Shown here piece by piece: positions 3,562-35,601 of a DNA stretch of 64,000 nucleotides. The DNA is from a virus (Duplodnaviria; Caudoviricetes), in IMG/VR virus record IMGVR_UViG_3300028591_008352, positions 1-64,000 of that record; one strand, 5' to 3'. Position numbers and translations under genes: made by a program. The number at the start of each line of letters is the position of its first letter. Position 1 is the stretch's first letter. The notes beneath the pieces were generated by a model. It saw only the letters and a list, made by a program, of their open reading frames with translations, was not told where the DNA came from and did not search any database.

Positions 3562-3577
3562 ACGCAATACTGGTATG
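3562..3577 (+). promoter_or_regulatory. sRNA target site 1 (ACGCAATACTGGTATG), ends on ATG 3575
   Basis: 15/16 Watson-Crick plus 1 G:U to 58778-58793. Confidence 0.75.
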
Positions 3578-3856
3578 AGAATTACGAAATCAATGGTATC
3601 GAAATGGCTCGATACCGAAAGCAAAAAAGGAAATTTCCTGATGGACGGCGAGGGTACCGTTACGAGACGGGAAGTCATCCTCATGCATACCATCATCCTA
3701 TTCGTTCTGGGTGGAGCCACCGCAATCGAGGATTCCATCTGGTTATCAGCTTTGTTCTTCATTGCCGCGTCTTTGGCAGTGAAGCGACTCAACAGGATCG
3801 ACAAAACCAAGCAATCATGGCAACAGAAGAATTCAACCAAATCAACGAGCGACTGA
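3575..3856 (+). CDS. Small membrane protein (2 predicted TM helices)
   Basis: MRITKSMVSK...; hydrophobic VILMHTIILFVLGGA and IWLSALFFIAASLAV; overlaps the xis start. Confidence 0.6.
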   Translation: MRITKSMVSKWLDTESKKGNFLMDGEGTVTRREVILMHTIILFVLGGATAIEDSIWLSALFFIAASLAVKRLNRIDKTKQSWQQKNSTKSTSD

Positions 3857-4110
3857 GCAAGATTGAACGCCTTGTCCTCTTGTCCTCAAAGGAAGTACTG
3901 ACTATCGAGGAGGTCAGCATCATGACCGGATTCACGGTAAGCAACATCTACCGCATGACATCCAAAAAGACCATCCCTTACTACAAGCCCCTTGGCGGCA
4001 AGATTTTCTTCGACAAGGCTGAAATCGAGAACTGGCTCCGTTCCAACAAGGTTGAGACGGATGCCGTGACAAAGTCGAGAGCAAAGACATATTGTGTAAC
4101 ACATAAATAG
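3817..4110 (+). CDS. Excisionase-like HTH protein
   Basis: KEVLTIEEVSIMTGFTVSNIYRMTSKKTIPYYKPLGGKIFFDKAEIENWL, a typical Bacteroidales Xis/HTH_17 pattern. Confidence 0.85.
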   Translation: MATEEFNQINERLSKIERLVLLSSKEVLTIEEVSIMTGFTVSNIYRMTSKKTIPYYKPLGGKIFFDKAEIENWLRSNKVETDAVTKSRAKTYCVTHK

Positions 4111-4117
4111 TGAACGT

Positions 4118-6103
4118 ATGAAAAATATCATTATCAGACAAATGACGCTTCTGAACTTCAAGGGAGTCCGGGAGCTGACGGTGGACTTCGACGAGCACGA
4201 GACGAACGTCTTCGGTGCCAACCACACGGGGAAGACCACCCTATTCGATGCCTTCGTATGGCTCCTGTTCGACAAGGACAGCCAGGATCGCCAGAACTTC
4301 GGCATCAGGACCTACGACGAGGACAACAACATCATCCCGAAGCTGCCGCATGAGGTGTCGGCCTGCATCGAGGTGAACGGTGTCGAAATCAACCTCAAGC
4401 GCTGCTTCGTGGAGAACTGGGTGAAGAAACGTGGCTCACAGGAAGCGGTATATGACGGTAACAGCGAGGAACGCTACTGGAACGACGTACCGTGTTCCAA
4501 GGCGGAATTCGCCAAGAAGATTGCCGACATCTGCGACGAGAGCATCTTCAAGCTCATCACCAACCCCCTTTATTTTCCATCAATGAAGCCAGCTACCCAG
4601 CGAGGCATGCTGTTCCAGATGGCCGGCGACCTCACGGACATGGACGTGGCATTGAGCGACATGGAGAGGTTCGCCAACCTCGCCGAGCAGCTCGGTCACA
4701 AGACGCTCGACGAATACAAGCGCGAGATTGCCGCCAAGAAGAAGCGCATCAAGGATTCCATCGAGACAATCCCTGCACGCATCGATGAGAACAAACGCCA
4801 AATGCCGGAGGCAGAGGACTGGTCGGCACTTGAGCGTGACATCAAGGAGAAAGAGGCCAAGATTAATGAGCTTGACGGGCAGATTGCCGACGAGAGCAAG
4901 GCTTATCAGGCCAAGTCCAAGGAAACTGCCGAGAAAGCCAAGGAACTTGCCGAGAGGAAACGCCAGCGCATCAACCGCGAGAATGCCGTGCGTGACCAAC
5001 TGCTGGCAGACTACTACAAGCAGGTAGAGGACTACAACAACCGCAAGATTTCCGCACAGCAACATAACTTCGATATCAGAGAGCGACGCAGGATTGCCGA
5101 AGCAGACCTGAGACGTGAGAAGGAGAACATATTGAAGCTACAGAGCGAGGTCAACGAGAAAGAGAATCGTCTTAGCAAGCTCCGGGAAGAATGGCGAAGC
5201 ATCAAGTCCAGGGTATTCAACCCAGAGAACCTTGAAACCGTCTGCCCGCATTGCGGCCGTCCTTACGACCAGTCTCAGATAGACCGCAGCATAGAAGACC
5301 AGCTTATTTCCTTCAATGCCCACACCACTCACTTGCTGGAAGAGAACAAGACCAATGGTAAGAAGCTTGCATCGGAAGTCGAAGCTCTGAAAGCCGCCAT
5401 CAATCAGGCTGAGGATATCAGAAATGAGAAGGATGGGCAGCTTGCCGGACTTGTTGAAAATCCGTTTACAGAGCCACAACCTGTAAAGCCTGACGTGACA
5501 GACGGCATTGCATCAGACACAGAGCTTCAGCAGCTCGACAACGAAATATCCGAACTGGAGGCAGAAATCGCAAAGCCCGTCGACAAGCCAGATACGGATT
5601 TCCTCACCGACGGGAAGAACCTTCTCCTTGAAGGCATAGCCGAGGACCGCCAGCGACTTGCAAAGCGCGATGCCATTGCCGCCACCATGAAGCGCATTGA
5701 CGAGTTGGAAGCAGAGTTGAAGGCCAACAACGGGACGCTGGCTGAGCTTGAAGGCATCGAGTTCAACATCCTGGAGTTCGGCAAGGCGAAGGTGGCCATG
5801 GTGGAGGACAAAATCAACGGTCTCTTCTCCATCGTCAAGTTCAAGATGTACGAGCGACAGATAAACGGCGGCGAGGTGGAGACATGCGAGTGCCTGATGC
5901 ACGGCACCCCCTACTCCGTGCTTTCAAACTCAGAGAAAATCAATGCCGGACTTGACATCATCAATGCCATCTGCCGAGCCAACGGCGTGTACGCCCCCAT
6001 CTTCATCGACAACAGGGAGTCATCCACGGACATCATCGACGTGGATTCCCAAGTAATCAACCTGATAGTTGACGCTTCTTGCAAGAAGCTCAAGTTTCAA
6101 TAA
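4118..6103 (+). CDS. Rad50/SbcC-like AAA ATPase with coiled coil and Zn hook
   Basis: LLNFKG, Walker A GANHTGKTT, central CPHC, LSNSEKINAGLDII, IFIDNRES. Confidence 0.88.
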   Translation: MKNIIIRQMTLLNFKGVRELTVDFDEHETNVFGANHTGKTTLFDAFVWLLFDKDSQDRQNFGIRTYDEDNNIIPKLPHEVSACIEVNGVEINLKRCFVENWVKKRGSQEAVYDGNSEERYWNDVPCSKAEFAKKIADICDESIFKLITNPLYFPSMKPATQRGMLFQMAGDLTDMDVALSDMERFANLAEQLGHKTLDEYKREIAAKKKRIKDSIETIPARIDENKRQMPEAEDWSALERDIKEKEAKINELDGQIADESKAYQAKSKETAEKAKELAERKRQRINRENAVRDQLLADYYKQVEDYNNRKISAQQHNFDIRERRRIAEADLRREKENILKLQSEVNEKENRLSKLREEWRSIKSRVFNPENLETVCPHCGRPYDQSQIDRSIEDQLISFNAHTTHLLEENKTNGKKLASEVEALKAAINQAEDIRNEKDGQLAGLVENPFTEPQPVKPDVTDGIASDTELQQLDNEISELEAEIAKPVDKPDTDFLTDGKNLLLEGIAEDRQRLAKRDAIAATMKRIDELEAELKANNGTLAELEGIEFNILEFGKAKVAMVEDKINGLFSIVKFKMYERQINGGEVETCECLMHGTPYSVLSNSEKINAGLDIINAICRANGVYAPIFIDNRESSTDIIDVDSQVINLIVDASCKKLKFQ

Positions 6104-6128
6104 TATTCACCAATAAACACTTATTCGT

Positions 6129-7058
6129 ATGTCACAACAGCAACAATCAGCGCCCAACGGCGCAACGCAGCAGCCCAAGACGGCTGTAGTGAAGTTCGAG
6201 AACGTAGCCGACCAGGTTCTCGAGAAGGTAAAGAGGTTCACCGACGACGGCGGTCTTGTATTGCCAAGGAACTACTCGGTGGCCAACAACCTCAAGTCGG
6301 CATGGCTCATCCTTCAGGAGACCAGCGACCGCAGCGACAAGCCAGTACTGGAGGTATGTACGAAAGCGAGCATTGCCAACGCCCTGTTCGACATGGTGCT
6401 GCAGGGCATGTCAGTCAGCAAGAAACAAGGCTATTTCATCGCCTACGGAAACAAGCTGGAGTTCCAGCGTTCCTACTTCGGCACCGTGGCGCTGGCCAAG
6501 CGCGTACAGGGAGGCATCGTTACCGAGCCTGTCGCAAACGTCATCTACGAGGGTGACGAGTTCATTTACACCATCGACCCGAAGACGGGCCTCATTTCCA
6601 TCATCAAGCACGAACAGAAGCTGGAGAACATCGACGACAGCAAGATTAAGGCTGCATACGCAATCGCCACCTATGCCGATGGTAAGACACAGACCACAAT
6701 CATGACCATCGACCAAATCAAGAAGGCTTGGAACCAGGGAGCCACCAAGGGCCAGAGTCCGGCACACAAGAACTTCCCTGCCGAAATGTGCAAAAAGACC
6801 GTCATTGGCCGTGCATGCAAGATGGTCATCAACAGCTCTGATGACGCATGGCTCTACGACGGCAAGAAGGATGAGGACGATGTGGATGTAGCACAGCGTC
6901 AGCGTGACGCAGAAGTGGCAGGTCGTTCAGCTAACAAGCTGGAAGATGCCGAGTATGAGGAAATCTCAACGGGAGCTGCAGGAACCGCCGAACCTCAGCA
7001 ACAGCAGCCTGCGCCAGCCCCATCAGCTCCTGCCAACGATGATGACCCCGGTTATTAA
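6129..7058 (+). CDS. recT: RecT-family ssDNA annealing protein
   Basis: SIANALFDMVLQGMSVSKKQGYFIAYG...FQRSYFG, EMCKKTVIGRACK, acidic tail. Confidence 0.9.
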   Translation: MSQQQQSAPNGATQQPKTAVVKFENVADQVLEKVKRFTDDGGLVLPRNYSVANNLKSAWLILQETSDRSDKPVLEVCTKASIANALFDMVLQGMSVSKKQGYFIAYGNKLEFQRSYFGTVALAKRVQGGIVTEPVANVIYEGDEFIYTIDPKTGLISIIKHEQKLENIDDSKIKAAYAIATYADGKTQTTIMTIDQIKKAWNQGATKGQSPAHKNFPAEMCKKTVIGRACKMVINSSDDAWLYDGKKDEDDVDVAQRQRDAEVAGRSANKLEDAEYEEISTGAAGTAEPQQQQPAPAPSAPANDDDPGY

Positions 7059-7079
7059 CCCATTAAAGCCAGACGAAGT

Positions 7080-7835
7080 ATGAAACTGCATATCCTTGGA
7101 AGTAACTCTCTCGGCAACTGCTACGTTTTGGAGTCCGCCAGCGGCTCTTTAATTATCGAGGCAGGTGTACGGTTTCTGGAAGTGAAAAAGGCTCTCAGAT
7201 TCAAAATAAACGGCATTGTCGGGGCAATCATCAGCCACCATCACAATGACCACGCTAAGTATGTCAGCGAGTTGGCAACTTCCGGGATTCTTGTTCTGGC
7301 ACTCTCTGAGACTCTTGAAGCCAAACAGCTGCTCGGCGCTCCTTTCACCAGGGCCATCGAGCCGCTGCACGGCATCAAGATAGCCGATTTTAAAATCATG
7401 CCTATTGCCCTCGACCACTCCAACAACGACGGTTCCCGATGTCCATGTGTCGGCTACGTGATAGATCACCCAGAGTCTGGGCGTATCCTGTTCGTTACAG
7501 ACACGATGAAGCTTGACACTATAGTACCTCGCATGAACCACATCATGATTGAGGCCAACTATGCCGATGACATTCTGACAAGGAACATAAAGAACGGAAG
7601 CGTACCGCCTTCCATGCGTCCGAGGCTGCTGAAATCACACATGGAACTTGGCACGACCAAGCTGATACTGCAGGACAACGACCTCTCTGACGTGAGCGAC
7701 ATCATACTGATTCACCTGTCTGACGGAAACTCCGACGAGAAAAGGTTTGTCCGTGAGGTTTCGGAACTGACTGGCAAGTGCGTGTACGCAGCCAATGCCG
7801 GCATGACCATCGACCTATCAAAAGACCCCTACTGA
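7080..7835 (+). CDS. MBL-fold metallo-hydrolase (probable exonuclease partner of RecT)
   Basis: LGSNSLGNCY, SHHHNDH, TDT, IEANY, SHM, LIHLS motifs. Confidence 0.88.
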   Translation: MKLHILGSNSLGNCYVLESASGSLIIEAGVRFLEVKKALRFKINGIVGAIISHHHNDHAKYVSELATSGILVLALSETLEAKQLLGAPFTRAIEPLHGIKIADFKIMPIALDHSNNDGSRCPCVGYVIDHPESGRILFVTDTMKLDTIVPRMNHIMIEANYADDILTRNIKNGSVPPSMRPRLLKSHMELGTTKLILQDNDLSDVSDIILIHLSDGNSDEKRFVREVSELTGKCVYAANAGMTIDLSKDPY

Positions 7836-7836
7836 C

Positions 7837-8085
7837 ATGGAAATATGCAAGACGGATGTGAAAAACATCATCCAGTTCCTTGAAGAGGCAGACGCCATCA
7901 TCAAGGCGGAGGTGGCCAGAATGGAAGAACTCGGCAACAGCTCGCTTCGGCTACAGAACCGCGCAAGGCTCATGCGGCTCATGTCAAGGAAGCTGACAAA
8001 GAAACTCAATAAAACATCAATTCAGAACAACAATGGCAAAGAAGAAAGTTCCCATCAAAGAGAAGGTAAAGACGCGGAAGGATGA
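7837..8085 (+). CDS. Hypothetical phage protein
   Basis: 82-aa ORF in operon, overlapping the next gene. Confidence 0.55.
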   Translation: MEICKTDVKNIIQFLEEADAIIKAEVARMEELGNSSLRLQNRARLMRLMSRKLTKKLNKTSIQNNNGKEESSHQREGKDAEG

Positions 8086-8920
8086 AATCCGCTTCAAGAC
8101 GGACGATCCGAAAAGGATGCTCAACAAGTATATCTGCTCCCGTGTCATCAAGACATGGAGCGAGGACTTCGTGGATAATGATACAGGAGAGATTACGTCC
8201 GTTGAACGTAGCGATGTCCTCTTCGAGAAAGGCACCTACATCGACCGCGAAGTGCTGCAAATGATTCAGTTTTCGCAAGCCGCTGGTGAGTGCAGCGAAA
8301 TAGAGGTCAGCAATCAGAACCGAGAGGCATACGAACTGGAGAGCACTCACCTCTTCCCGTACAGTTCGAAGGTGACGATTGGTGACAAGAAGTATCGCTT
8401 CATCCTCTACGCTACCAGTATTGCCAACGTGCTCGAAATCATGCGTGACTATCTGGAACTGAACTACGCCGGGGGATTCTCCATCACCAACGTACAGGAA
8501 ATGGATTCCTGCATCATCCTCACCGATGAACTGACAAAGGAGAATCTGGATGTCGCCTATTTGCGTGATGGCATCGATATGGAAACGTATCTCAATGCCA
8601 AAGAAGGTGCAGATGAGTCTGAGGACGGCAATGCCAAGGAAGAGAAGAAGTTCTTCCAGATGGATATGAAGATAACGTATGACGACGGCATAGAGCTGCA
8701 TCAGTCGTTCATCGTGAACACCTTCGACACTAACCGGGCCTTGCTGGTCATCAACAAGTATCTGCAGGATGCCGAACAGAAGCACGCGGAAAAGGTCAAG
8801 GAGAATGGCGGTAGCTATGAGATTCGAAAGAATATCCTTTGTATTGAAAAAGCAGCACCCATGCCTGTGAAGAGCTTCGTCCCGAAAGAGTTCTCCCTGG
8901 CATACAACGAACCAGAGTAA
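8033..8920 (+). CDS. Phage protein with N-terminal segment resembling the Bacteroidetes RpoB beta-lobe insertion
   Basis: RVIKTWSEDFVDNDTGEITSVERSDVL resembles Bacteroides RpoB [27 protein letters not shown] (recalled from memory, not searched). Confidence 0.7.
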   Translation: MAKKKVPIKEKVKTRKDEIRFKTDDPKRMLNKYICSRVIKTWSEDFVDNDTGEITSVERSDVLFEKGTYIDREVLQMIQFSQAAGECSEIEVSNQNREAYELESTHLFPYSSKVTIGDKKYRFILYATSIANVLEIMRDYLELNYAGGFSITNVQEMDSCIILTDELTKENLDVAYLRDGIDMETYLNAKEGADESEDGNAKEEKKFFQMDMKITYDDGIELHQSFIVNTFDTNRALLVINKYLQDAEQKHAEKVKENGGSYEIRKNILCIEKAAPMPVKSFVPKEFSLAYNEPE

Positions 8921-8925
8921 AAGCT

Positions 8926-9657: not shown

Positions 9658-10391
9658 AGGATGAAAAGGGCAATGTGATCAGAACAAACAGGATTGACCT
9701 CCTGCTGGCTAAGATTAAGCAGCGCGGCCTGTTCAATGACATCATACGCTACGGCTACATGGACTATGACCTCAATGAGTCGCTGCAGATGATAGAGATC
9801 ATTGGCAAGAGCAGGACGCAGAAGTTCGTGCTTGATGACGAGAACCGCTTCACCTACACGAACCTCATTAAGTGGGTACACGGCGACGCATCCATGCAAT
9901 GCCTCGATCCTAACAGCAAGGAGCATGTGAAAGGGAACTTGAAACGTGGTATCTACATAGCTGGCAATACAGGGACAGGTAAGTCGTGGGCGCTTGAAAT
10001 CATCGTAGCCTATTCACGGATGATGGGATTCCAGATAACATTCGATGACAAGCAGACGGGCCTTTCATGGGCAAACATCAGTGCCGATGATATATGCTCA
10101 AAGTTTTCCAACACAGGTAACATCGAGAGCATCAAGAATAACAATATCCTCGGCATTCAAGACCTCGGGGCTGAACCAATGGAGTGCTGCTTCATGGGTA
10201 ACAAGCTGGAGGTCATGCGCAACGTGATTGAGACACGCGGCGACAGGACTGACTACATCACATTATTCACCTCAAACCTACCTATGTCTCACAAGGCACT
10301 CTTAGACCGATACGGCGACCGCGTGGCCAGTCGTCTCGTGGAAATGTGCAACTACTTCGAGATTAAGGGGCAGGACAGAAGAAAACTTTAA
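9648..10391 (+). CDS. DnaC/IstB-like ATPase (helicase loader)
   Basis: Walker A GNTGTGKS, IQDLGAEP, TLFTSNL, YGDRVASRLVEM. Confidence 0.88.
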   Translation: MEIKDEKGNVIRTNRIDLLLAKIKQRGLFNDIIRYGYMDYDLNESLQMIEIIGKSRTQKFVLDDENRFTYTNLIKWVHGDASMQCLDPNSKEHVKGNLKRGIYIAGNTGTGKSWALEIIVAYSRMMGFQITFDDKQTGLSWANISADDICSKFSNTGNIESIKNNNILGIQDLGAEPMECCFMGNKLEVMRNVIETRGDRTDYITLFTSNLPMSHKALLDRYGDRVASRLVEMCNYFEIKGQDRRKL

Positions 10392-10397: not shown

Positions 10398-10413
10398 ACG
10401 CAATATTGATATG
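10398..10413 (+). promoter_or_regulatory. sRNA target site 2 (ACGCAATATTGATATG), ends on the pcfK-like ATG
   Basis: 15/16 Watson-Crick plus 1 G:U to the sRNA. Confidence 0.75.
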
Positions 10414-10941
10414 GCAACAAAGAACGAACCAAAGAAAGAGCAGGAGCAGAAGAAGTCAGCTCCGGCAAAAGGCGGGAAGGTTTCAGACACCTTCAAGACA
10501 ACCATCAAGGCATACCTCGACAAGCGAGCTGCCGAAGATGAACTATTCGCCAAGACTTACGCCAAGGAGAACAAGAACCTTGACGAGTGTTGTAACTACA
10601 TTCTCCAGCAGGTACAGAAGTCGGGCTGCATGGGATTTGCCGACGAGGAAATCTACGGCATGGCAGTCCACTACTACGACGAGGATGACATCAAGAATGT
10701 GAAGCCTGTATCGGCAGGAAAGATTGTCGTTAACCACGTTGTAGAGCTCTCTGAGGCAGAAAAAGCCGAAGCAAAGGAGAAAGCCAAGGCTGACTATGAA
10801 AAGGAGCAGCTGGCAAAGCTGAAGGAGGAAGAGCGCAAGCGTGAGGAAAAGGAGCGCAAGCGCATGGAAGAGCGCAAGCGGAAGGCCCAGGAAGCCGCCG
10901 AGCGCCAGAAGTCATTGCAACTATCACTATTTGAACTTTAG
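10411..10941 (+). CDS. PcfK-like protein
   Basis: FKTTIKAYLDKRAAEDELFAKTYAKENKNLDECCNYI...GFADEEIYGMAVHYYDE; ends QLSLFEL. Confidence 0.88.
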   Translation: MATKNEPKKEQEQKKSAPAKGGKVSDTFKTTIKAYLDKRAAEDELFAKTYAKENKNLDECCNYILQQVQKSGCMGFADEEIYGMAVHYYDEDDIKNVKPVSAGKIVVNHVVELSEAEKAEAKEKAKADYEKEQLAKLKEEERKREEKERKRMEERKRKAQEAAERQKSLQLSLFEL

Positions 10942-22170: not shown

Positions 22171-22665
22171 TTATCGTCCTATCCTATAGACTTTCTTCTT
22201 GTGTTCGTCAATGAACCCGCATGAAGCGACAAGCGGAATCACCTTTTCCTCGTCCACGCTTGTCAGATGGCCTACGACCTCGGCTTTTACCGCTACACTC
22301 TTTCTCGCTTTCAGCGTAAACAGCTCGGCACAGTCGAGGCGGCTGTCCTTTTCCAGTATTCCGGGATAATTCTCCTGTTTCAGGGTGTACTGGTATTTCT
22401 GCCTGTTAGGGTTATTCTTATAGAAGTCCAGGTTGGAATTGATGAAACACAGTCCGATGGCGTCGCCCTTGGAATTCTTTCCCACGATGACAAAGTACTT
22501 GTTGCGGTTCTGATATCCGTTTTTGAGGGTAAGGCCGTCGTTCGCATCCATGTTCTGGTAGACGATATCGCCTACATTCATGTCGGAGCCCGACGAAACC
22601 TGCTGCTCTTGCTGAATGGAGGCCTTCAGAGCAGCGAGAGAGCCTTTCGCATCGTCAATCAGCAT
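22171..22665 (-). CDS. PemK/MazF-like candidate toxin
   Basis: VGDIVY...RNKYFVIVG...GLCFINS...YP..L..DS.LDC pattern; overlaps and follows the Panacea gene. Confidence 0.6.
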   Translation of the reverse strand: MLIDDAKGSLAALKASIQQEQQVSSGSDMNVGDIVYQNMDANDGLTLKNGYQNRNKYFVIVGKNSKGDAIGLCFINSNLDFYKNNPNRQKYQYTLKQENYPGILEKDSRLDCAELFTLKARKSVAVKAEVVGHLTSVDEEKVIPLVASCGFIDEHKKKVYRIGR

Positions 22666-23233
22666 TGAAGGCGGCTTTTATCAGTTGGACTTCGCGTATG
22701 TGGTCGACCATCTGCTTCGAGGCACCGCCTGCTCGGGCAATGTCGATGGTGGTAAGCATGTCCTTCTGCGGATCGTCCTCCATCAAGCCCCTCACCTTGT
22801 TGTATGCCTCGTCGTGGGAGAGCTCTGACAAATCCTCAGACCCCATACGCCCATACTTTTCTATAGTTCGGTCGATCTCCTCTTTCTCCATATCGGAGAT
22901 ATAGTCCATGTCAGGCTCATTCACGGCATGTACAATCTGATTGGAATCAACCGCTATGGACGACATAAACTCCGTCAGGTCGTTTCCCTCATCGTCTGGC
23001 TCCAGATTGTTCTCAACCAGTTTCACCACTTTGTAGGTAAGGGCTGGCACTGGACCCTTCAGGCGAGCCTTAAACGTGTCCTCCACGAGGCAAAGGCCAT
23101 TGGTGGCAAGGTATTCACGCTGTGCAAAATACATGATCTTGAACAGCCTGATATAGTCCACGCCATCCTTGAAGTGCTGAAGAATATACAGCACAACAGC
23201 CTGAATCTTGCTTATTTGCTCAGGTGATTTCAT
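22655..23233 (-). CDS. Panacea-domain (DUF4065/SocA-like) antitoxin
   Basis: LFKIMYFAQREYL...DTFKARLKGPVP...LSELSHD. Confidence 0.85.
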   Translation of the reverse strand: MKSPEQISKIQAVVLYILQHFKDGVDYIRLFKIMYFAQREYLATNGLCLVEDTFKARLKGPVPALTYKVVKLVENNLEPDDEGNDLTEFMSSIAVDSNQIVHAVNEPDMDYISDMEKEEIDRTIEKYGRMGSEDLSELSHDEAYNKVRGLMEDDPQKDMLTTIDIARAGGASKQMVDHIREVQLIKAAFNAD

Positions 23234-23426
23234 AAAAGTAATATGTTAATTAGCCACTCTTAATTTTTGCCATTCATTTCCGGTTGCAAAATTACAACAT
23301 TTATTCGGAATTTCAATGCGTAACGCAATATTTAACATTTAACGCCATTAAATACGAAAGTGCAAATAATGACCGAAGCCGACATTAGCATAAGTGCCCC
23401 TCTTGCCAATGTTTATTGATGTTTTA

Positions 23427-24683
23427 TCAAACCTTTCTTTCATTGATTCTTAATGTTTCCCTATACTGCTCGGCTTCAGGCACTTTTATGAACTCAACAG
23501 ACTTGTCGAAATTAGCCTTCACAACCTGTTCAATTTCTTCAAGTGTGACGTGAAAAAACTCTTTGCGCCCGTTAATCATATTCATCTTCCTATCATCAAA
23601 GGCACGATGCAAAGCTGCTTCAAGCTTTGGCGCATCATCACAAAATATCATTGCATGAACGTCAAATTTGAACGGAACAGACGCATCACCAAGTTCATCA
23701 ACACGCTCCATCGGATCAAGACGACGTGTCATGCCTATTTTATAGACATTCTCACCAAACGATCCAATATTAGAGATGATATACACATATCCAGCTTTTT
23801 TATTTGCTTCACGATAATCGATGTCTTTCATTGCAACTTCAAGATCCTCCAGATGGCCTTCGATTTCCGTCTTTTTCTGTAACAACAATTCTCTCTCTGT
23901 TTCATCAGCATTGTCAAGTTGCAATTCAATCTTTGCAAGGGCGTTTGTATAATGCTTTTTCTCCTTCTCAATGTCTTTTCTGGCATCTTCGATTTCCTTT
24001 GCCAACTTGGCTTCTTCTCTCAACTGTTCACGAATACGTTTCTGTTCTTCTTTCTCCTCTTGTTTCTTAACTGCATATTCGTACGAAAGATTAAGCTCTT
24101 CTATTTTGGACTTTACATATTCATTTGTCAAGCGTACACAATTCTTAGAATTCATTTTATTAAGTGCATCTGCAGACTTTTCTATCTTTTCCTTAAATGC
24201 GACTATATTGTTAAACTTGACTTTACTAATGAGTACGTCGCATTCATCGTTAAAACAGCGAACTATCTGCTTGATGTTTTGACTGGTCATTGCACGTCCT
24301 TTTGCAATACTACCATCAACTGTCCATTCCTTATCACATACAGCAGCGCAATGGTCACGAATCATTCGTTTTTGTTCAGAACGAACTTCGTCGAGACGTT
24401 CTTTGTAAAGTTCCAAGTTTGCAAAATCGTATATTGGAGAATACAAGCCGTACTCCTGTAGCAATATTGAATCGTCAAGTTCCACTATCTGATCTTTCTT
24501 TTCCTCTATCTCACCAGACAACTTTTCCAATTCGGACTTTAATTCTTCTATGACTTTTTCTAAGCGTGATTTCTCGGTATCAAGATCAGCGATGGCTCGG
24601 TACTTTTCCAAACCACTGACTTGTTCCTTTAATAGCTGTATTTCAACTATCTCCTTTTTCTTTAGGAAATCAAATACTCCCAT
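23427..24683 (-). CDS. DUF4041 + T5orf172 (GIY-YIG-like) domain protein
   Basis: Coiled coil, then GYVYIISNIGSFGENVYKIGMTRRLDPMERVDELGDASVPF...LEAALH...RKEFF. Confidence 0.88.
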   Translation of the reverse strand: MGVFDFLKKKEIVEIQLLKEQVSGLEKYRAIADLDTEKSRLEKVIEELKSELEKLSGEIEEKKDQIVELDDSILLQEYGLYSPIYDFANLELYKERLDEVRSEQKRMIRDHCAAVCDKEWTVDGSIAKGRAMTSQNIKQIVRCFNDECDVLISKVKFNNIVAFKEKIEKSADALNKMNSKNCVRLTNEYVKSKIEELNLSYEYAVKKQEEKEEQKRIREQLREEAKLAKEIEDARKDIEKEKKHYTNALAKIELQLDNADETERELLLQKKTEIEGHLEDLEVAMKDIDYREANKKAGYVYIISNIGSFGENVYKIGMTRRLDPMERVDELGDASVPFKFDVHAMIFCDDAPKLEAALHRAFDDRKMNMINGRKEFFHVTLEEIEQVVKANFDKSVEFIKVPEAEQYRETLRINERKV

Positions 24684-25005: not shown

Positions 25006-25118
25006 CAAAGATACATATTTAATATAAGAGTATAGCAATTTAATATATTAAATATAGTTAAAAGATAGCGTTTTACTATATATAAATTTGGAAGATATAG
25101 CGATTTACTATATCTTTG
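25006..25118. promoter_or_regulatory. Second divergent switch: two promoters, three operators
   Basis: TATAGCnnTTTAnTATA-like palindromes at 25031, 25064, 25096. Leftward -7 TATCTTTG at 25006-25013. Rightward TTTG (25087)-20 bp-TATCTTTG (25111). Confidence 0.75.
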
Positions 25119-25714: not shown

Positions 25715-25777
25715 AACAGGAAGCATCCCCTACCCCAAAGACGCAATACTGATATGAACGATTATATATTTCACTAA
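25711..25777 (+). other. Two tandem micro-ORFs (MKQEASPTPKTQY* 25711-25752; MNDYIFH* 25754-25777) spanning sRNA target site 3 (25741-25756)
   Basis: ACGCAATACTGATATG is a 16/16 complement of the sRNA and covers the stop of micro-ORF 1 and the start of micro-ORF 2. Confidence 0.55.
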
Positions 25778-25791: not shown

Positions 25792-26511
25792 ATGGAAACA
25801 GCAATCCAAGTATTCAACAACCCGCAATTCGGAGACATCCGAGTAATAACCGACGAGAATGGACAAATCCTTTTTGTAGGAAAGGATATAGCGAAAGCTC
25901 TGGGGTATGCTAACCCTCGAAACGCTTTGAAAGCCCATGTGGATGCAGAGGACAAAACCACCGCCCCGATTCAGGGCAGTGGTTCGAACTACAAAACCCG
26001 TGCTGTGCTTATCAACGAGTCTGGCTTCTACGCTCTTGTCCTTTCGTCAAAGTTACCCCAAGCCAAGCGGATCAAGCGTTGGGTGACGAGCGAGGTTCTT
26101 CCGGCCATCCGCCGCACTGGAGCCTACGCCGTGCCCAATCCCGCCGTCACCGACAGCACGGAGCATCTGCTGGCAGAGCTGCGCGACACACGCACACAGG
26201 ATGCCGAGAAGCTGCTGCGCAAGCACGTCAACGCCTTCAATAAGCGGCTGAGGGAGTATGTGACAGAAGGCCGCTATTTCTTAGGCCACAACTACGGCCC
26301 TCTGAGCCGTGAGCAGTCGGGAATAGTGCTGCCTCCCGGCATAAGCTTCGAACAGGCTTTGAAGTCGCTCTTCGCCCAGCTCGACGAGGCATTCCTGGCC
26401 TTCTATAGCCTGAACCACGGCTTTGCAAAGGGAGAAACAGCCATGCAGATGCGACTGGAGGCAATGAGAGAGCAGATTTCGCTCCTCGGAAAAATGGCTG
26501 GCGTCATCTGA
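25792..26511 (+). CDS. BRO-N domain antirepressor-like protein
   Basis: IQVFNNPQFGDIRVI...FVGKDIAKALGYANP...INESGFYALVLSSKLPQAKRIKRWVTSEVLPAIRRTGAY. Confidence 0.92.
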   Translation: METAIQVFNNPQFGDIRVITDENGQILFVGKDIAKALGYANPRNALKAHVDAEDKTTAPIQGSGSNYKTRAVLINESGFYALVLSSKLPQAKRIKRWVTSEVLPAIRRTGAYAVPNPAVTDSTEHLLAELRDTRTQDAEKLLRKHVNAFNKRLREYVTEGRYFLGHNYGPLSREQSGIVLPPGISFEQALKSLFAQLDEAFLAFYSLNHGFAKGETAMQMRLEAMREQISLLGKMAGVI

Positions 26512-29189: not shown

Positions 29190-30647
29190 ATGTCGATTAT
29201 CAACCAAATCACCAACCTGTTCAACGCTGCGGTTGGAAGGAACCAGGACTTCGAGCAACTCATCGAGGCCCGTGACATCAACAGAGTTAAGAGCCTCATG
29301 GACAGCCACCGCGAGGAGGCGGAGGAAGCCATGAGGGAGTACGACCCGGAGACCCATCCCATCATGAGCCGAAAGGACAAGGTGCTGAAGGACCTGAAGG
29401 GCAACCGCAAGGGCACGCTCACGCGGTGGAAGCTGCCAGTGGGCTACCCCATGTACATCAACGAGATTTCCCTCGTGTTCCTCTTCGGCCAGCCCGTGAA
29501 GTGGAAGCAGAAGAGCGAGTCCGCGGACGAAGGCTTCCAGGCATACACGAAGCTGCTGAAGAAGATGCACTTCAACAGCAAGATTCGCCAGTGCAAGCGA
29601 CTGGCTGGATCGGAGACGGAGTCGGCCATGCTGTTCCGCGTGTTCCGCAACAAGAAAGGGGAGCCCGACTGCCAGATTCGCGTGCTCGCGAACTCCAAGC
29701 ACGACGAGATTTACACCCGCTGGGACGTGTACGAGAACCTCATCACGTTCGCATGGGGCCATTACGGCAAGGACATTGCCGGGAAGACCACCTATCACCT
29801 CGACATCTTCACCGACTCCGTCATCTACCATTGCACGCAGGGCTTGTTCGGCTGGGAGGTAGAGGAGGAGGACAACCCCATCGGCAAGATTCCAGTCATC
29901 TACTTCAGCCAGAAGAAGGAATGGGACGGTGTGCAGAAGCTGATAGACCGCGAGGAATACGTGGCATCGAGACGGGCGGACACCAACGACTACTTCTCCG
30001 ACCCGTACCTCGTCATCAAGGCTGCGCTGCTCAAGTCGATGCCCGACAAGGAGATGGAGAACAAGACGCTCGTGGCCAGCGACAACGTGGAGGACGTGAG
30101 CAAGCTTGCAGGGTTCCTCACCTGGGACGGGCAGAACGAAAGCAAGAAGGACGAGCTGGAGTGGCTGCGCCACCACATCCTCACCAAGACGTTCACGCCA
30201 GACATCGACTGGAGCCAGTTCAAGGGCATGTCGCAGATGTCCGGCAAGGCGCTGAAACAGATGATGCTCCTCGCCGACATCAAGGCGACCAAGCACAAGG
30301 AGAACTACGACGAGATGCTCGACCGCGCCGCGTCGCTCGTCATCGCCATCATGGCGAACGTGCTCTACATCACCAAGACGGAGTACAACCTTGGCGAGCT
30401 GGAGGTTGACCACGACTACCAGGAGCCGTTCGGCGAGGACATCGCGGAGGTAATCAAGAACATCAACGAGTCCATCGACGGAGGCACCATGTCGGAGGAG
30501 AGCGGCATCGAGCAGAACCCGCTCATCAAGGACAAGGAGCTGGAGAAAAACCGCCTCAAGGAACAGAGGGAGGAGAAGGCCAGGCAGCAGGGCGACCTAT
30601 TCGGGGGCACCCAGGACAGGGACGACGTATTCGGAGGGGCTAAGTGA
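29190..30647 (+). CDS. Portal protein (SPP1 gp6-like)
   Basis: Follows terL; KIPVIYF..., LIDREEYVASRRADTNDYFSDP. Confidence 0.9.
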   Translation: MSIINQITNLFNAAVGRNQDFEQLIEARDINRVKSLMDSHREEAEEAMREYDPETHPIMSRKDKVLKDLKGNRKGTLTRWKLPVGYPMYINEISLVFLFGQPVKWKQKSESADEGFQAYTKLLKKMHFNSKIRQCKRLAGSETESAMLFRVFRNKKGEPDCQIRVLANSKHDEIYTRWDVYENLITFAWGHYGKDIAGKTTYHLDIFTDSVIYHCTQGLFGWEVEEEDNPIGKIPVIYFSQKKEWDGVQKLIDREEYVASRRADTNDYFSDPYLVIKAALLKSMPDKEMENKTLVASDNVEDVSKLAGFLTWDGQNESKKDELEWLRHHILTKTFTPDIDWSQFKGMSQMSGKALKQMMLLADIKATKHKENYDEMLDRAASLVIAIMANVLYITKTEYNLGELEVDHDYQEPFGEDIAEVIKNINESIDGGTMSEESGIEQNPLIKDKELEKNRLKEQREEKARQQGDLFGGTQDRDDVFGGAK

Positions 30648-30844
30648 TGGCTGCAGGGAGAGCGAGGAAACAGGGCGGCGTCAATGGCGTCCGTCACCTG
30701 TGCCGTGACTGCGAGAACAGCTACGACTGGCACGAGAAGAGCGTCAAGGGCGAGTTCTTCATGTGCCGTTGCCCCCATCACAGGTTCAGCAGGTTCCTCA
30801 ACCATGACGGATGTGACGAACACTTTAAGCCGAGAATGAAATGA
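30644..30844 (+). CDS. Small Cys/His-rich protein
   Basis: CRDC...CRCPHH...CDEH. Confidence 0.55.
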   Translation: MMAAGRARKQGGVNGVRHLCRDCENSYDWHEKSVKGEFFMCRCPHHRFSRFLNHDGCDEHFKPRMK

Positions 30845-32625
30845 GAGACGACAAGAGGAAGAAGGCGGAAGCCGCAATCATGCAGTACATCAACGGGCTG
30901 TTCGGCCGGACCGAGGGCTATGCGTCTGCCGTGAGCAGGCACTTCACGTCTGCCGTGAACGCCCTGCTCGACCTTGCGGCAAAGGTTGACATGGAGCCCG
31001 ACGAGGTGTTCTACTTCGCCGACCACAAGCGGCTGTCCGCCAAGGCGACCGCCATCCTCCGAGGGCTCTACAGCGCCGTGTACCAGGAAATCAGGAACGG
31101 CGTGACAGCCGAATGGGACAACGCCAACGCCGCCACCGACCTGATGCTCACAAGGCTGTTCGGCAAGGAACTGCAAGAGGACAACCACTTTGCACGGTGG
31201 TTTGCCCGTAACCAGGAGGCCATGGACTCGTTCTTCAGCCGAAAGGACGTTCACGGTGGCCTGAACCTCTCGCAGAAGGTGTGGAAGTACACCAGCCAGT
31301 TCAAGGAGGAAATGGAGTTGGCATTGTCTGCCAGCCTCGGCCGTGGTGACTCGGCAGCCACCGTGTCGCGCCACGTGCGCCAGTACCTCAAGGAACCCGA
31401 CAAGCTGTTCCGACGGGTGCGAGACGCCAATGGTAACCTGAAGCTGTCGAAGCGTGCCGCGGCGTACCACCCCGGACGAGGCGAGTACCGCAGCAGCTAC
31501 AAGAACGCCATGCGTCTTGCGAGGACGGAGACGAACTCCGCCTACCGTGCCGCCGACTGTGACCGCTGGGGCAACATCCCGTTTGTCGTGGGCATTGAGG
31601 TGAAGCGATCCAACCATCCGTTCGGCTGTGAGGTGTGCGAGCTCCTGAAAGGCAAGTACCCCAAGGACTTCGTGTTCACGGGATGGCATCCGCAGTGCCG
31701 ATGCTACATCGTACCCGTCATGGCGTCGGAGAAGGAAAGGATGGCTTACCACCGTGCCATACTGAAAGGCGAGGACGTGAGCGACTGGCACTTCAATGAC
31801 GAGATTACCGAGCCGCACGATGGGTTCAATAAATGGATTGGGGAGAACCAGGAGCGAATCGGTGAAGCAAGGCAGCGCGGAACGCTGCCCTACTGGATAA
31901 AGGATAACCCGAAGTATGTGGGGTTTGAACAACTACATAGAAATAAGATGGCGTTGCAACATACTGAAATCATTGGAACTTCTGAACTGACAACCAAAGA
32001 ACTCAACCAACTATCTGGCAACATAAGGGAATTGTCGAAAAAGGCAGGAATATTTGGTAAAGACTACGAAATAGAATTCTCCGAGTTTTCGGATGGCACA
32101 CTCATGCAATGGAAGGATGGAAAGCTGACCATTTCAACTGTCAGGCATCAGCTGGAGGATGGAACAGTATTCTGCCCAACAGAGAACCTCCGCTCTGCCA
32201 TCAGGAAACTTCAAAGAGGAGATACGCTTGAATTCAATGAAGAATACAGTATTGAGAGTCTGTTCCACGAGAGTGTTCACGCACGAGCAACACGGAAGAC
32301 AGCTATCATAGCTGGAAGTATGGACGAAAAAATAATGGAGACATGTACACAGCTATATGCCCGCGACAGATACGTGAAAATCCTAAAAGCTTACAAAGTC
32401 GATGCCGTTAACTTTGAGCGCATTATGACTGATGGATTGGGGTATAATTTAGAATGCTCCAAGTTGCGCGGATTCTTCATTAAGAATGGAGAATTACAAG
32501 TAGGTGAACTCATCAATATCGCCAATGAGACGGAGAGCGGAACACGGATAATGATGAAGAAACTTATTGGAATTGGATTGACAGAGAAAGATGCAAGGTC
32601 TATCCTGAGAAACTTTCTTAAATAG
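30841..32625 (+). CDS. MuF-like minor head protein with C-terminal HExxH extension (polymorphic toxin candidate)
   Basis: NAMRLARTETN, CEVC, GWHPQCRC, LPYWIKDNP, then an AT-richer ~230-aa extension containing FHESVHA. Confidence 0.85.
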   Translation: MRDDKRKKAEAAIMQYINGLFGRTEGYASAVSRHFTSAVNALLDLAAKVDMEPDEVFYFADHKRLSAKATAILRGLYSAVYQEIRNGVTAEWDNANAATDLMLTRLFGKELQEDNHFARWFARNQEAMDSFFSRKDVHGGLNLSQKVWKYTSQFKEEMELALSASLGRGDSAATVSRHVRQYLKEPDKLFRRVRDANGNLKLSKRAAAYHPGRGEYRSSYKNAMRLARTETNSAYRAADCDRWGNIPFVVGIEVKRSNHPFGCEVCELLKGKYPKDFVFTGWHPQCRCYIVPVMASEKERMAYHRAILKGEDVSDWHFNDEITEPHDGFNKWIGENQERIGEARQRGTLPYWIKDNPKYVGFEQLHRNKMALQHTEIIGTSELTTKELNQLSGNIRELSKKAGIFGKDYEIEFSEFSDGTLMQWKDGKLTISTVRHQLEDGTVFCPTENLRSAIRKLQRGDTLEFNEEYSIESLFHESVHARATRKTAIIAGSMDEKIMETCTQLYARDRYVKILKAYKVDAVNFERIMTDGLGYNLECSKLRGFFIKNGELQVGELINIANETESGTRIMMKKLIGIGLTEKDARSILRNFLK

Positions 32626-32851
32626 CGTAGTCGTGGTAGCAAGTACCAAAAACCTTATGCACGTCGTTAGGAATCAAATCTGCATATTTTTTAGCAGTTG
32701 TAAGGTCGTGACGATAACGATAAAGTCGATAGATAAGACCGTAATGTTCAGTCTGAGTCCAATCTTCGAAATCATCCAAGGTACTATCAGCAAAGCCAAG
32801 CACGGCTTCACGTTCCTTTTTTGTGATATTATGGTCAAATATTGTTTCCAT
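32618..32851 (-). CDS. Small protein METIFDHNITKKE..., candidate immunity protein (leaderless)
   Basis: Convergent with and overlapping the MuF 3' end by 8 bp; consensus promoter ends 4 nt before its ATG. Confidence 0.65.
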   Translation of the reverse strand: METIFDHNITKKEREAVLGFADSTLDDFEDWTQTEHYGLIYRLYRYRHDLTTAKKYADLIPNDVHKVFGTCYHDYAI

Positions 32852-32855
32852 GCCG

Positions 32856-32887
32856 CAAATATACGATTTATAATTGAAACTACCAAA
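32856..32887 (-). promoter_or_regulatory. Consensus promoter TTTG-N20-TATATTTG for the 32618-32851 gene
   Basis: Minus-strand TTTG at 32884-32887 and TATATTTG at 32856-32863. Confidence 0.75.
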
Positions 32888-32895
32888 TAAAAGTT

Positions 32896-32928
32896 GCAGG
32901 AGGTGGCTATTTACCACCCCTGCTTTTT
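32896..32928. terminator. Bidirectional terminator closing the leftward operon
   Basis: GCAGG(A)GGTGG-loop-CCACCCCTGC with T/A tracts on both sides. Confidence 0.65.
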
Positions 32929-33152
32929 GTATTCATACTCGCAGGGACAAGAATTCCCTGCCTGATGATGCACTTTTTGTTCTCGTACGGCTCTTTAGAG
33001 AGCTTTACGCAGTTCAAAAGAGTCTTGTAAGTGATTCCCACTACCTCGTTTGATAAAACGTCATACACGGCCTTTTTCGAGCCAAAGTAAAAATGCTTTG
33101 GCCTGTCTCCCGGCTCTTTCAGTTCCACATGGATAACTTTTCGTGTCTTCAT
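32907..33152 (-). CDS. Hypothetical basic protein
   Basis: MKTRKVIHVELKE...HFYFGSKKAVY. Confidence 0.65.
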   Translation of the reverse strand: MKTRKVIHVELKEPGDRPKHFYFGSKKAVYDVLSNEVVGITYKTLLNCVKLSKEPYENKKCIIRQGILVPASMNTKSRGGK

Positions 33153-33493
33153 TGCTTTTTGCTTTTGAGTCTTTCAATGAGTGCGTCAGCATATTGTATC
33201 GCCTGTTCTGAGACAGCATCTGGTATGGTCTTTCCTGCGTACTGGTCACCGATACCATGGCCACTCATGAGAATGGTGCGTGTCGTTTCAGCGCAATATG
33301 GAAGGACAGTCCGGGCTATCTCATACCTGCGCTGTTCCCAATCAATATTACTGTCACTCGTTTCTTGCACAAGTTCCACCTCTTCCGGACTGAGTTCTAT
33401 GGGGCTACCGTAGCTGTCACATGTATTGAGTGTTATCTTGGCATAGGGTGCTAAATTCACCAGTTCGCCAGTCTTCTTGATTCTTGCTTTCAT
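33149..33493 (-). CDS. Hypothetical phage protein
   Basis: MKARIKKTGELV...IDWEQRRYEIA...AIQYADALIERLK. Confidence 0.7.
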   Translation of the reverse strand: MKARIKKTGELVNLAPYAKITLNTCDSYGSPIELSPEEVELVQETSDSNIDWEQRRYEIARTVLPYCAETTRTILMSGHGIGDQYAGKTIPDAVSEQAIQYADALIERLKSKKQ

Positions 33494-33497
33494 TGTT

Positions 33498-34364
33498 TTA
33501 CTTGATGTTTAGAATTCTTTTTGCTGCATAGATGGCATTGTCCGTTAGCTGGCGCTGCCATGCCTGGTTAAATCGTGACCACTTGAAAGCAGATCCTTTC
33601 AACTTTGCCCTCAGTTCCTCTTCGGGAATCTCGTTGAAGTGGAGCCTCAGACGTTCCTCGCTGTAGCAATATTCGATGCTGCCCCATTCATATTCCTCTG
33701 TCCTATCCTCGGTGTTGACCATCTTCGTGAGGCGGTCGATGCGCGCCTGTGTGTCCTTAATCTTGGCATTGTTGTTAGTAAGCTGGAATGGCGCAAAGCC
33801 TTTCCCCCACCATCCAGCGTCCCCCATCAACAACATTGCATCCTTTTCGCTGATGCCAAGATTCTCCAGTTCCTCCAGCTTCTCGATATCCGGCATCTTC
33901 TTTCGGATCACCGCATTGGCTTTCTTCATCCGCTCCTGAAGCTCGGTCAGCCTGTCAACCTTCTCTTGCAGGCGCTCGATTTCTTCCCAGCCCGTCAAGC
34001 GGTGCTGTCGGTTGAGACGCTTGATGACACGCTTCACCCAGTCGTTCAGTTTCTCACGGGCCGAGCGCTCCCACTCCAGATACTTGCGGTTTCTCGCCGT
34101 CGGGAACTTTGCAGGTCCTGTCACCGCAGGGCTGGCACACCTTGACTGAGCGTGCAGCCAGTGGCGGAACAGTTCGATGAAACGTTTCTCATACTCCTCA
34201 TGGAATTCCTCTGGTATCTTCGAGAGGAAATCACTCAGTTCACTCTCGCAGCAGTTCAGCAACACTTCGCCAGCCCTCTCAGGGTCGAAACTGCTCCACC
34301 TATTGGCCTCGTAAGCCTCTTTCTTCAATGCCTCTACTGAGGCGCGTCTTGTAATCTGTGCCAT
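33498..34364 (-). CDS. Conserved mobile-element 'leading region' type protein
   Basis: SRCASPAVTGPAKFP..RN, LTNNNAKIK, FKWSRFNQAWQRQLT motifs recalled from plasmid/phage early proteins. Confidence 0.7.
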   Translation of the reverse strand: MAQITRRASVEALKKEAYEANRWSSFDPERAGEVLLNCCESELSDFLSKIPEEFHEEYEKRFIELFRHWLHAQSRCASPAVTGPAKFPTARNRKYLEWERSAREKLNDWVKRVIKRLNRQHRLTGWEEIERLQEKVDRLTELQERMKKANAVIRKKMPDIEKLEELENLGISEKDAMLLMGDAGWWGKGFAPFQLTNNNAKIKDTQARIDRLTKMVNTEDRTEEYEWGSIEYCYSEERLRLHFNEIPEEELRAKLKGSAFKWSRFNQAWQRQLTDNAIYAAKRILNIK

Positions 34365-34368
34365 GTCG

Positions 34369-34647
34369 CTATCTTATTTGTTTGTTAGTGCATACCAACA
34401 CGTCACCCACGATGAAGTCACCATCATACAGTAAACTTTCAGCCAGTTCCGTTGCCTTGTCATTCACGGGAAGACCTTCAAACTTGCCTTCCTCGTTCAT
34501 CACAATCACCTCTCCGTCATCATTCATCAAGTAGAAAAGCTGGATGTAGCCACCCACAATCTTCTGCATTTCCTCGAGTTGGAAATCCGTGCCGTTCTTC
34601 GGCTCTACGGGAATAATCTCACCGTTTGTCTTAATAATTCTTGCCAT
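34369..34647 (-). CDS. DUF3846 domain protein
   Basis: LEEMQKIVGGYIQ...VIVMNEEGKFEGLPVNDKAT...FIVGDVLV. Confidence 0.85.
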   Translation of the reverse strand: MARIIKTNGEIIPVEPKNGTDFQLEEMQKIVGGYIQLFYLMNDDGEVIVMNEEGKFEGLPVNDKATELAESLLYDGDFIVGDVLVCTNKQIR

Positions 34648-34660
34648 ATCAATATTGCGT
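34645..34660 (-). promoter_or_regulatory. sRNA target site 4 (ACGCAATATTGATATG), ends on the DUF3846 ATG
   Basis: 15/16 Watson-Crick plus 1 G:U. Confidence 0.75.
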
Positions 34661-34698
34661 TTATTGTGGGGAGTTGGTTAGGCTCCCCGTTACCTATG

Positions 34699-35163
34699 TT
34701 ATTTGTTTGACAATACGTTTATCAGTAATTCTCTGTCAGCTTCCCAAAGGTTGTAGCCTTTCTCAATCTTCCTGCGTAGGTACTCAGAAGATCCGAGCAT
34801 TTCGATGGCCTTGGCTCTGAGGTCTGTTGCCGACCATTTCTCAGCCTGCTCAATCAGGAAGTCGGCCATTCCGTCATAGACGCTTGCCTTTGGCTCCAGT
34901 TCCTGAATCCGCTTGTAGTATTCAGAGAGTTTCTGTGTGTTCTCGTCAATAACACTTTCAAGCTCCTTTACTCTCAAATGGTTGTTTGCAGCATCCTTAC
35001 ACATGGCATCGTAGGCTTTCTGGATGCCTCCGTTCTTCTTCCACTGCTTGCACCAATCATCCTTGTCGAGATTGCTGTGTTCGTACTCCGGCTCTATCTC
35101 CTTGTGATAGTAGTCGTCTGTTGGTGTGAAACCCGTCCAGTCGATAAATTCCTTGATTAACAT
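34699..35163 (-). CDS. Hypothetical protein
   Basis: MLIKEFIDWTGFTPTDDYYHKEIEPEY...DKDDWCKQW. Confidence 0.7.
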   Translation of the reverse strand: MLIKEFIDWTGFTPTDDYYHKEIEPEYEHSNLDKDDWCKQWKKNGGIQKAYDAMCKDAANNHLRVKELESVIDENTQKLSEYYKRIQELEPKASVYDGMADFLIEQAEKWSATDLRAKAIEMLGSSEYLRRKIEKGYNLWEADRELLINVLSNK

Positions 35164-35174
35164 AACTCTTTGCT

Positions 35175-35423
35175 TTACTTGTTCATTAACTTGTTAAAAT
35201 ACTTTTGGGTGTCCTCTGCGCTTGCTTCACTGCAGATTTCAGCCGGGTAGATGAAATCATCGTCATCCCCTTGGTCATTGAGTTTCAGTTCGCCGTCAAT
35301 GACGCATGATGAAAGAAGATAGGCATCGTAGCCGAAGTCATCTTTCGTGTAACCGCCAATCATTCCCTGGTGCCATCTGATTCCATCGAGATAGACAACC
35401 GTTCCAAGTTTTAGCTTTTCCAT
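35175..35423 (-). CDS. Small acidic hypothetical protein
   Basis: 82 aa with DQGDDDDF; ATTATCAGAC immediately precedes its ATG. Confidence 0.65.
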   Translation of the reverse strand: MEKLKLGTVVYLDGIRWHQGMIGGYTKDDFGYDAYLLSSCVIDGELKLNDQGDDDDFIYPAEICSEASAEDTQKYFNKLMNK

Positions 35424-35432
35424 GTCTGATAA

Positions 35433-35588
35433 TTACTTGTTAATAAAAAGGTTGATGTACTTTGCCAGTCCGTACATAACGATTCCGCTGTTCATGTCAT
35501 TCGACTTCCTGGCGACAAAGTTTCTCATGCCACGCTCCGTCTTGAAGCTCTTGGTCTTTCCCGTGATAAATAATACCTTAAATTCCAT
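35433..35588 (-). CDS. Small basic protein, first gene of the leftward operon
   Basis: MEFKVLFITGKTKSFKTERG...; ATG at 35588. Confidence 0.6.
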   Translation of the reverse strand: MEFKVLFITGKTKSFKTERGMRNFVARKSNDMNSGIVMYGLAKYINLFINK

Positions 35589-35601
35589 ATCTGTATTGCG
35601 T
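35586..35601 (-). promoter_or_regulatory. sRNA target site 5 (ACGCAATACAGATATG)
   Basis: 15/16 complementary, with one A:A mismatch. Confidence 0.7.

Follow-up and report, generated by a model that had tools for sequence, protein, structure and literature searches.

Five genes of a rumen Prevotellaceae prophage, recorded as IMGVR_UViG_3300028591_008352, carry the same 16-nucleotide (nt) element, here called the tag, across their start codons, and comparison among related phages makes it probable that the tags are read by a phage-encoded antisense RNA of ~73 nt, which would silence chosen cistrons post-transcriptionally. The stretch analyzed (hereafter, the window) is the first 64 kb of this 77,105-bp virus record, which is G000 in the comparisons. 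A protein encoded in the host flank is 93% identical to that of a gene of a rumen Prevotellaceae metagenome-assembled genome (MAG), and the record is a prophage of a rumen Prevotellaceae host; a search of INPHARED found no cultured-phage relative. The relatives used were ~80% identical in DNA where aligned, or more distant, down to 35-50% protein identity, and included a complete 64.7-kb phage (G001), a fragment (G002), a distant phage (G003), and a prophage (G004).

A 16-nt tag spans five start codons

The tag has the consensus ACGCAATA-YW-G-R-TATG and spans positions -13 to +3 of five start codons, with the ATGs located at 3575 (+ strand, tag 1), 10411 (+, tag 2), 25754 (+, tag 3), 35588 (- strand, tag 4), and 34647 (-, tag 5). 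A sequence-only reading of this DNA had proposed that an 8-mer recurs at -13 from the A of the ATG at these five sites, and all five were present at these coordinates; the fixed offset of the 8-mer arises because the shared 16-nt element includes the start codon itself. The 8-mer ACGCAATA occurs eight times in the window, compared to 1.48 expected, and none of 100 shuffles reached eight, in agreement with the proposal that the recurrence is not random, the shared element being longer than had been claimed. ACGCAATAYWGRTATG was found in six exact copies in the 77-kb record, namely the five start sites and positions 58778-58793 on the minus strand. The five ATGs are true starts, with the N-termini of the orthologues aligning from residue 1. 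A k-mer count over naively called open reading frame (ORF) starts was too noisy for use.

The remaining two copies of the 8-mer (298 and 23323) fit chance expectation. The former, at 298-305, lies in the loop of a conserved hairpin (TTTGTTGCT..AGCAACAAA), 22-29 nt upstream of the integrase ATG; it would be an accessible seed match in the G000 phage, and it is probably a chance occurrence, the loop sequence differing in G001, G002, and G004. This copy and the one at 58778 are nearly symmetric around the attP junction and were considered as arm-type sites of the integrase, a candidate rejected on the location of the 298 copy in a variable hairpin loop and its absence from G001, G002, and G004. 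The latter copy lies inside a palindrome, TGCGTAACGCA (23315-23330), between a SocA/Panacea gene (22655-23233) and a DUF4041/T5orf172 gene (23427-24683), both leftward.

A predicted small RNA gene carries the antisense copy

The sixth copy of the 16-mer falls within a predicted small RNA (sRNA) gene at 58722..58831 on the plus strand, with a transcript of ~73 nt (~58759-58831). Its promoter, TTTG (58722-58725)-N20-TACATTTG (58746-58753), is a full Bacteroidetes consensus; the antisense 16-mer (58778-58793), the plus strand of which is the reverse complement of the tag, is located 24 nt past the promoter, and a terminator consisting of a 12-bp stem (58796-58827) and a T run lies just 3′ of it. 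The predicted fold consists of a 5′ hairpin holding CAUAUCAG, a single-stranded linker UAUUGCGU (58786-58793), and the terminator, and the predicted unpaired probability of the linker is 0.8-1.0 in G000, G004, and G003. Because the eight invariant bases of the tag pair with this predicted linker, the portion of the RNA predicted to be exposed is complementary to the invariant half of the tag. The five target duplexes had predicted energies of -20.7 to -26.5 kcal/mol, compared to a background mean of -7.6, and were among the best in the whole record. The gene is located at the right end of the prophage, 23-55 kb from its targets (the nearest being ~23 kb away), and a search of 58650-58950 against Rfam returned no family match at E ≤ 1, C4 included.

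Such an RNA is also predicted in two further phages, specifically G311 (terL 77%, portal 59%, and DUF6808 41% relative to G000), where the RNA likewise follows DUF6808, and G320 (IMGVR_UViG_3300045988_043852; 92% complete, terL 41%). The sRNA promoter is conserved in G001, G002, G004, G003, and G311, and the position after the amidase/DUF6808 genes is common to G311, G320, and G003. In G003, the 16-nt seed and the architecture of the RNA are unchanged although its stem sequences are unrelated, and the role of terminator is filled by different stems in G003, G311, and G320.

Seed and tag co-vary among phages

Two unbiased collections, one of relatives of orf288 and the other gathered with the sRNA promoter pattern, yielded two alleles in addition to that of G000; in the three alleles, tags with A, T, or G are matched by seeds with U, A, or C, respectively. 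The first allele pairs the linker UAUUGCGU with the tag ACGCAATA. In the second, the G311 linker AAUUGCGU corresponds to the tag ACGCAATT, found at -13 of two G311 genes and also in G312 and G313. In the third, the G320 seed CAUUGCGU corresponds to ACGCAATG, which is present in eight copies in G320, compared to 1.65 expected, three of them at gene starts, where the 8-mer includes the ATG. When duplexes were computed for all combinations in a 3 × 3 table, nine of nine targets paired best with the RNA of their own phage. On these comparisons, the RNA gene and the tags are functionally tied, and the proposed regulon is well backed at the sequence level.

Some of this pattern could also be produced by a protein, if the 16-mer were the operator of a RegA-like translational repressor or of a DNA-binding regulator of the phage and the copy at 58778 were one more site. 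The pattern seen with RegA is a motif of this kind, spanning start codons in several mRNAs, the joint change of every copy would be equally compatible with a co-evolving protein, and central mismatches are tolerated; however, the only antisense copy always lies inside a promoter-hairpin-linker-terminator unit, the position of which is conserved at 35-50% protein identity even though its stems are unrelated, and the eight invariant nt coincide with the predicted single-stranded linker. Furthermore, a DNA operator would offer no reason for the ATG phase inside operons, and no candidate binding protein was identified, none being RegA-like among the ~35 of ~80 proteins scanned. We consider the operator explanation unlikely. 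The antisense RNA is preferred because of the strand rule, the ATG phase inside operons (4-8 nt past the previous stop), and the conserved promoter-hairpin-linker-terminator unit.

Additional observations were made during these comparisons. In G320, two copies of ACGCAATG lie 30 nt apart (45330-45367), each opening a very short ORF, and could represent a tandem target or a decoy. The sRNA promoter pattern also recurs in other phages, on three viral contigs (L530, L562, and L567), upstream of short hairpin-linker-terminator units whose linkers are unrelated; for one of these, an RNA-like prophage unit in G321, no tag-like targets were present in the genome of that phage.

Conservation of tags in related phages

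Both the tag and the RNA are kept in G001, G002, G003, and G004. The regulon proposal had called for the motif at orthologous genes of related prophages, and this was found: across 19 orthologue pairs, the 8-mer was identical at 152/152 positions and RTATG at 95/95, compared to 47% identity in the 30 nt upstream and 62% in the first 30 coding nt, although the sites in these pairs were found through the pattern and the conservation figures are thus subject to ascertainment bias. Each of the 23 non-redundant target sites was sense-oriented on a start codon. The pcfK gene is tagged in three lineages (G000/G001/G004, G006, and G008/9), and the DUF3846 gene in two lineages, being tagged again in G007-9. 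Two further candidates were set aside: a tag variant, TCGCAATC (L420), the other matches of which were unrelated, and a single tag-like site in G005 with a one-mismatch partner, both in coding sequence and probably due to chance.

Several observations weigh against control by an antisense RNA. A shared DNA or RNA binding site for a protein would also show co-variation of all copies. The predicted accessibility of the linker is lower in G001 (unpaired ~0.3 over GCG), and the seed is predicted to be partly paired in G311 and G320, depending on the assumed 5′ end. The sets of tags differ among relatives, with G004C32 being without tag 1 and the bro tag (tag 3); the bro gene itself is absent from both G001 and G004C32. 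G006-G009 carry tags, yet the sRNA was not found in these fragments, which are without the genome end (tag variants were also scanned). Finally, central tag positions 9-10 tolerate true mismatches (CAG, CGG, and AAC variants), and wobble-compatible changes were not enriched, the C>U and A>G target variants keeping the pairing.

Tags occur at background frequency in host genomes

In the lysogenic Prevotella MAG that carries G004 (4.8 Mb), four exact copies of the tag were found, all in the prophage contig. Across 301 genomes of the genus of this MAG, 26 matches were recovered outside G004, compared to 29 for a reversed control; five identical Prevotella matches represented one conserved host coding sequence, and the exact 16-mers recovered from genome contigs were mostly chance singletons. 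The motif is thus not a host-wide signal, and the possibility that it is equally common before host genes, which the sequence-only reading had raised against itself, did not hold. The tag was also missing from the leaders of 80 other phage pcfK genes (45-74% identity), which are of the ordinary A-rich type, and Prevotella 16S rRNA contains no complement of the tag longer than 7 nt (-10.7 kcal/mol for the longest match).

A generic translation enhancer was rejected on these three results. A phage-specific enhancer, contacting the ribosome or an initiation factor and either tuned by the RNA or making it irrelevant, would agree with the A residues that the tag places at -14, -13, -9, -8, and -6, of which -14, -13, and -6 are A-enriched positions in Bacteroidetes (PMC7366714), but the host background frequency, the untagged pcfK starts, and the poor 16S complementarity also argue against it, and we regard it as very improbable.

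Tagged genes and transcription units

The genes named in the sequence-only reading (cro-like, xis-like, pcfK/PcfJ/methylase, the micro-ORF before Bro-N, and DUF3846) were all recovered at their sites. Tag 1 (ACGCAATACTGGTATG, 3562..3577, +) covers the start of a gene encoding a 93-aa protein with two transmembrane segments (3575-3856), the second cistron after a cro-like gene (3316-3555), the frame of which is backed by 3-periodic substitutions relative to a related phage. An xis-like HTH_17 gene (excisionase/regulator-like) begins at 3817, overlapping the 93-aa gene by 40 nt. In the duplex of tag 1 with the sRNA, 16 positions are paired, including one G·U (-24.7 kcal/mol), and the tag 1 variant is identical in the G001 orthologue. 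Tag 2 (ACGCAATATTGATATG, 10398..10413, +) covers the start of pcfK (10411-10941) and begins 6 nt past the stop codon that ends a DnaC-like loader gene; downstream of pcfK, with gaps of ≤4 nt, come pcfJ (10946) and an N6 methylase gene (12373).

Tag 3 (ACGCAATACTGATATG, 25741..25756, +) is the sole 16/16 match to the sRNA (-26.5 kcal/mol). It bridges two short ORFs, covering the stop of the first (13 codons) and the start of the second (7 codons; 25754-25777), which ends 14 nt upstream of a Bro-N gene (25792-26511) filed under antirepressors in PHROGs; both the micro-ORF and tag 3 are conserved in G002. Tag 4 (ACGCAATACAGATATG, 35586..35601, -) covers the start of the first gene of the leftward unit, encoding 51 aa (35433-35588), and forms one A·A mismatch with the sRNA (-20.7 kcal/mol), a variant that is unchanged in the G001 and G004C32 orthologues. 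Upstream of the 51-aa gene is a -7 box, TAAATTTG (35629-35636), and the leader between this box and tag 4 contains a palindrome, GTGCTTAATAAGCAC (35612-35626), conserved in G001 and G004C32; the leftward unit may have two controls, the palindrome and tag 4. Tag 5 (ACGCAATATTGATATG, 34645..34660, -) covers the start of the DUF3846 gene (34369-34647) downstream of a hairpin, GGGGAG-N9-CTCCCC (34668-34688), and the next three cistrons after DUF3846 are separated by gaps of ≤4 nt. Most targets are without known function; of the functional labels previously attached to them, xis-like and Bro-N/antirepressor-like were backed by family assignments, whereas "anti-host" for pcfK/pcfJ/methylase and for DUF3846 found no such support.

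The promoter pattern TTTG-N18-22-TAnnTTTG occurs at five sites in 77 kb, compared to 1.0 in shuffles, and the four consensus promoters other than that of the sRNA face the cro-like gene, the S24 repressor gene, the bro operon, and a gene encoding 77 aa. The rightward early promoter PR (3213..3243, +; full consensus) drives cro and tag 1 and, farther downstream, also tag 2. Divergent from it, a full-consensus promoter at 3269-3300 (-) faces the S24 repressor gene (2491-3225). The bro operon promoter (25087-25118) reads TTTG-N-TATCTTTG, and the full-consensus promoter of the leftward 77-aa gene (32856-32887, -) ends a few bases before its ATG, this gene converging on a long MuF-like gene (30841-32625).

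As placed by full-consensus promoters, the tags fall in only three transcription units, namely PR, the bro operon, and the leftward unit, and only the site at 35588 is a first cistron, the others being internal, either 4-8 nt past a stop codon or after a hairpin. The earlier description of the five sites as entry points of distinct operons therefore stood in part: there are three units with one true first cistron, and in one further case, at the head of a block behind the GGGGAG..CTCCCC hairpin, the tag remains with the first gene regardless of which gene that is. When this block head was searched by protein, blind to the tag, the hairpin and tag preceded different first genes, specifically DUF3846 in G000, a 132-aa gene in G004C32 (leaving the DUF3846 orthologue there without a tag), genes of 110 and 132 aa in G001, and, with the 8-mer at -11, the G006 orthologue of orf288.

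These different first genes behind the same hairpin and tag in G000, G001, and G004C32, together with the unrelated upstream flanks of several tagged orthologues, are also what would be seen if the tags were junction sequences for module swapping by homologous recombination, without a regulatory role. However, 16 nt is short for recombination, and the antisense copy in an RNA-like unit, the ATG phase, and the lineage-specific seed/tag alleles would be left unexplained. We regard this explanation as very improbable; module exchange may be a by-product of shared tags.

Proposed mechanism and relation to the repressor

Under control by the antisense RNA, the RNA would be transcribed from its own host-type promoter, its exposed linker UAUUGCGU would nucleate on the invariant ACGCAAUA, and pairing would extend through the AUG by opening the 5′ hairpin of the RNA. 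Initiation by the 30S subunit would then be blocked, leaving the tagged cistron untranslated, and downstream cistrons (at gaps of ≤11 nt or overlapping) would also be silenced through translational coupling or mRNA decay, including the xis-like, pcfJ-methylase, bro, and DUF3846-block cistrons. The outcome would be selective silencing inside three polycistronic units, layered on the repressor; it may set a threshold that guards lysogeny from leaky transcripts, operate late in infection, or both. Established at the sequence level are the sequences and where they lie, their conservation and co-variation, and the predicted promoter, terminator, and fold; from these we infer production of the RNA, its pairing inside the cell, a repressive effect, and the timing of its action.

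The repressors of G000 and G001 differ. The gene in the repressor position of G001 (L194, 10387-10818) encodes 143 aa without an S24 domain and is 26% identical to the N-terminal region of the 243-aa S24 repressor of G000, while the cro-side promoter region is conserved in G001 along with the same sRNA and tags. Because G001 has a different repressor but the same RNA and tags, the system appears modular with respect to the repressor. G000 and G001 are probably heteroimmune, and the RNA system could act between such heteroimmune relatives. The suggestion that these functions are held behind a second lock independent of CI is plausible, since the sRNA has its own promoter and G001, with an unrelated repressor, keeps the system.

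More tentatively, and with somewhat less than even confidence, we suggest a clade of temperate Bacteroidota phages with a co-evolving address code, in which the RNA at the end of the genome and the start-codon tags diversify together (seed U, A, or C), phages of the same seed silence the tagged genes of one another whatever their repressor, and a switch of seed creates a new immunity specificity. If so, the address code would constitute an RNA-based layer of immunity acting on several cistrons at once.

To our knowledge, gene control in the phages that infect gut and rumen Bacteroidota is almost unexplored. If the proposed mechanism is correct, single genes inside long operons would be controlled compactly through one start-codon tag; the natural seed/tag alleles are ready-made compensatory mutants, and a tag/RNA pair could serve as an orthogonal translational switch in Bacteroides engineering.

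Comparison with known systems

The closest parallels are found among RNAs that act at translation starts. Bacteroides mRNAs are without Shine-Dalgarno (SD) sequences, and repression by the sRNA GibS involves base pairing over the start codon (PMC7366714). Like the RNA predicted here, GibS and other intergenic sRNAs of Bacteroides thetaiotaomicron have their own sigma-ABfr-type promoter, an intrinsic terminator, and a single-stranded seed, and GibS pairs over the initiation codons of more than one mRNA, in a phylum that has neither SD sequences nor Hfq (PMC7366714). GibS is encoded on the chromosome, has a metabolic role, and pairs imperfectly, whereas the present RNA is phage-borne, is directed at genes of the phage itself, and shows near-perfect 16-nt pairing with a shared tag.

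In P1 and P7, the c4 RNA of immI (c4-icd-ant) is likewise a phage RNA of ~75 nt forming a second layer of immunity, and in P1 it acts through icd on ant; through short exposed elements, it pairs with the ribosome-binding region of a small ORF that lies upstream of the antirepressor gene and is translationally coupled to it, and the specificity of RNA and target varies among related phages (PMC12197685, PMC8546580). Tag 3 may be compared with the c4 target, as it covers the start of the 7-codon ORF and Bro-N follows 14 nt on, with the coupling here being putative. Unlike the predicted sRNA, which has its own promoter and terminator and would use one shared 16-nt tag to reach five cistrons distributed over three units, c4 arises by processing from the operon of its own target and acts on one mRNA; the host phylum also differs, being without Hfq, and no Rfam C4 match was obtained. 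The sar RNA of P22 is similarly a small phage RNA that blocks initiation of antirepressor translation by pairing over the start region, but it is cis-encoded opposite a single target, whereas the RNA described here is trans-encoded with multiple targets. The T4 RegA regulon shares the logic of one regulator, many early mRNAs, and a motif overlapping start codons, although RegA is a protein and the matching element here is an RNA-like gene. Compared with these systems, antisense control by the predicted RNA would extend the idea of P1 c4 from one target to a regulon.

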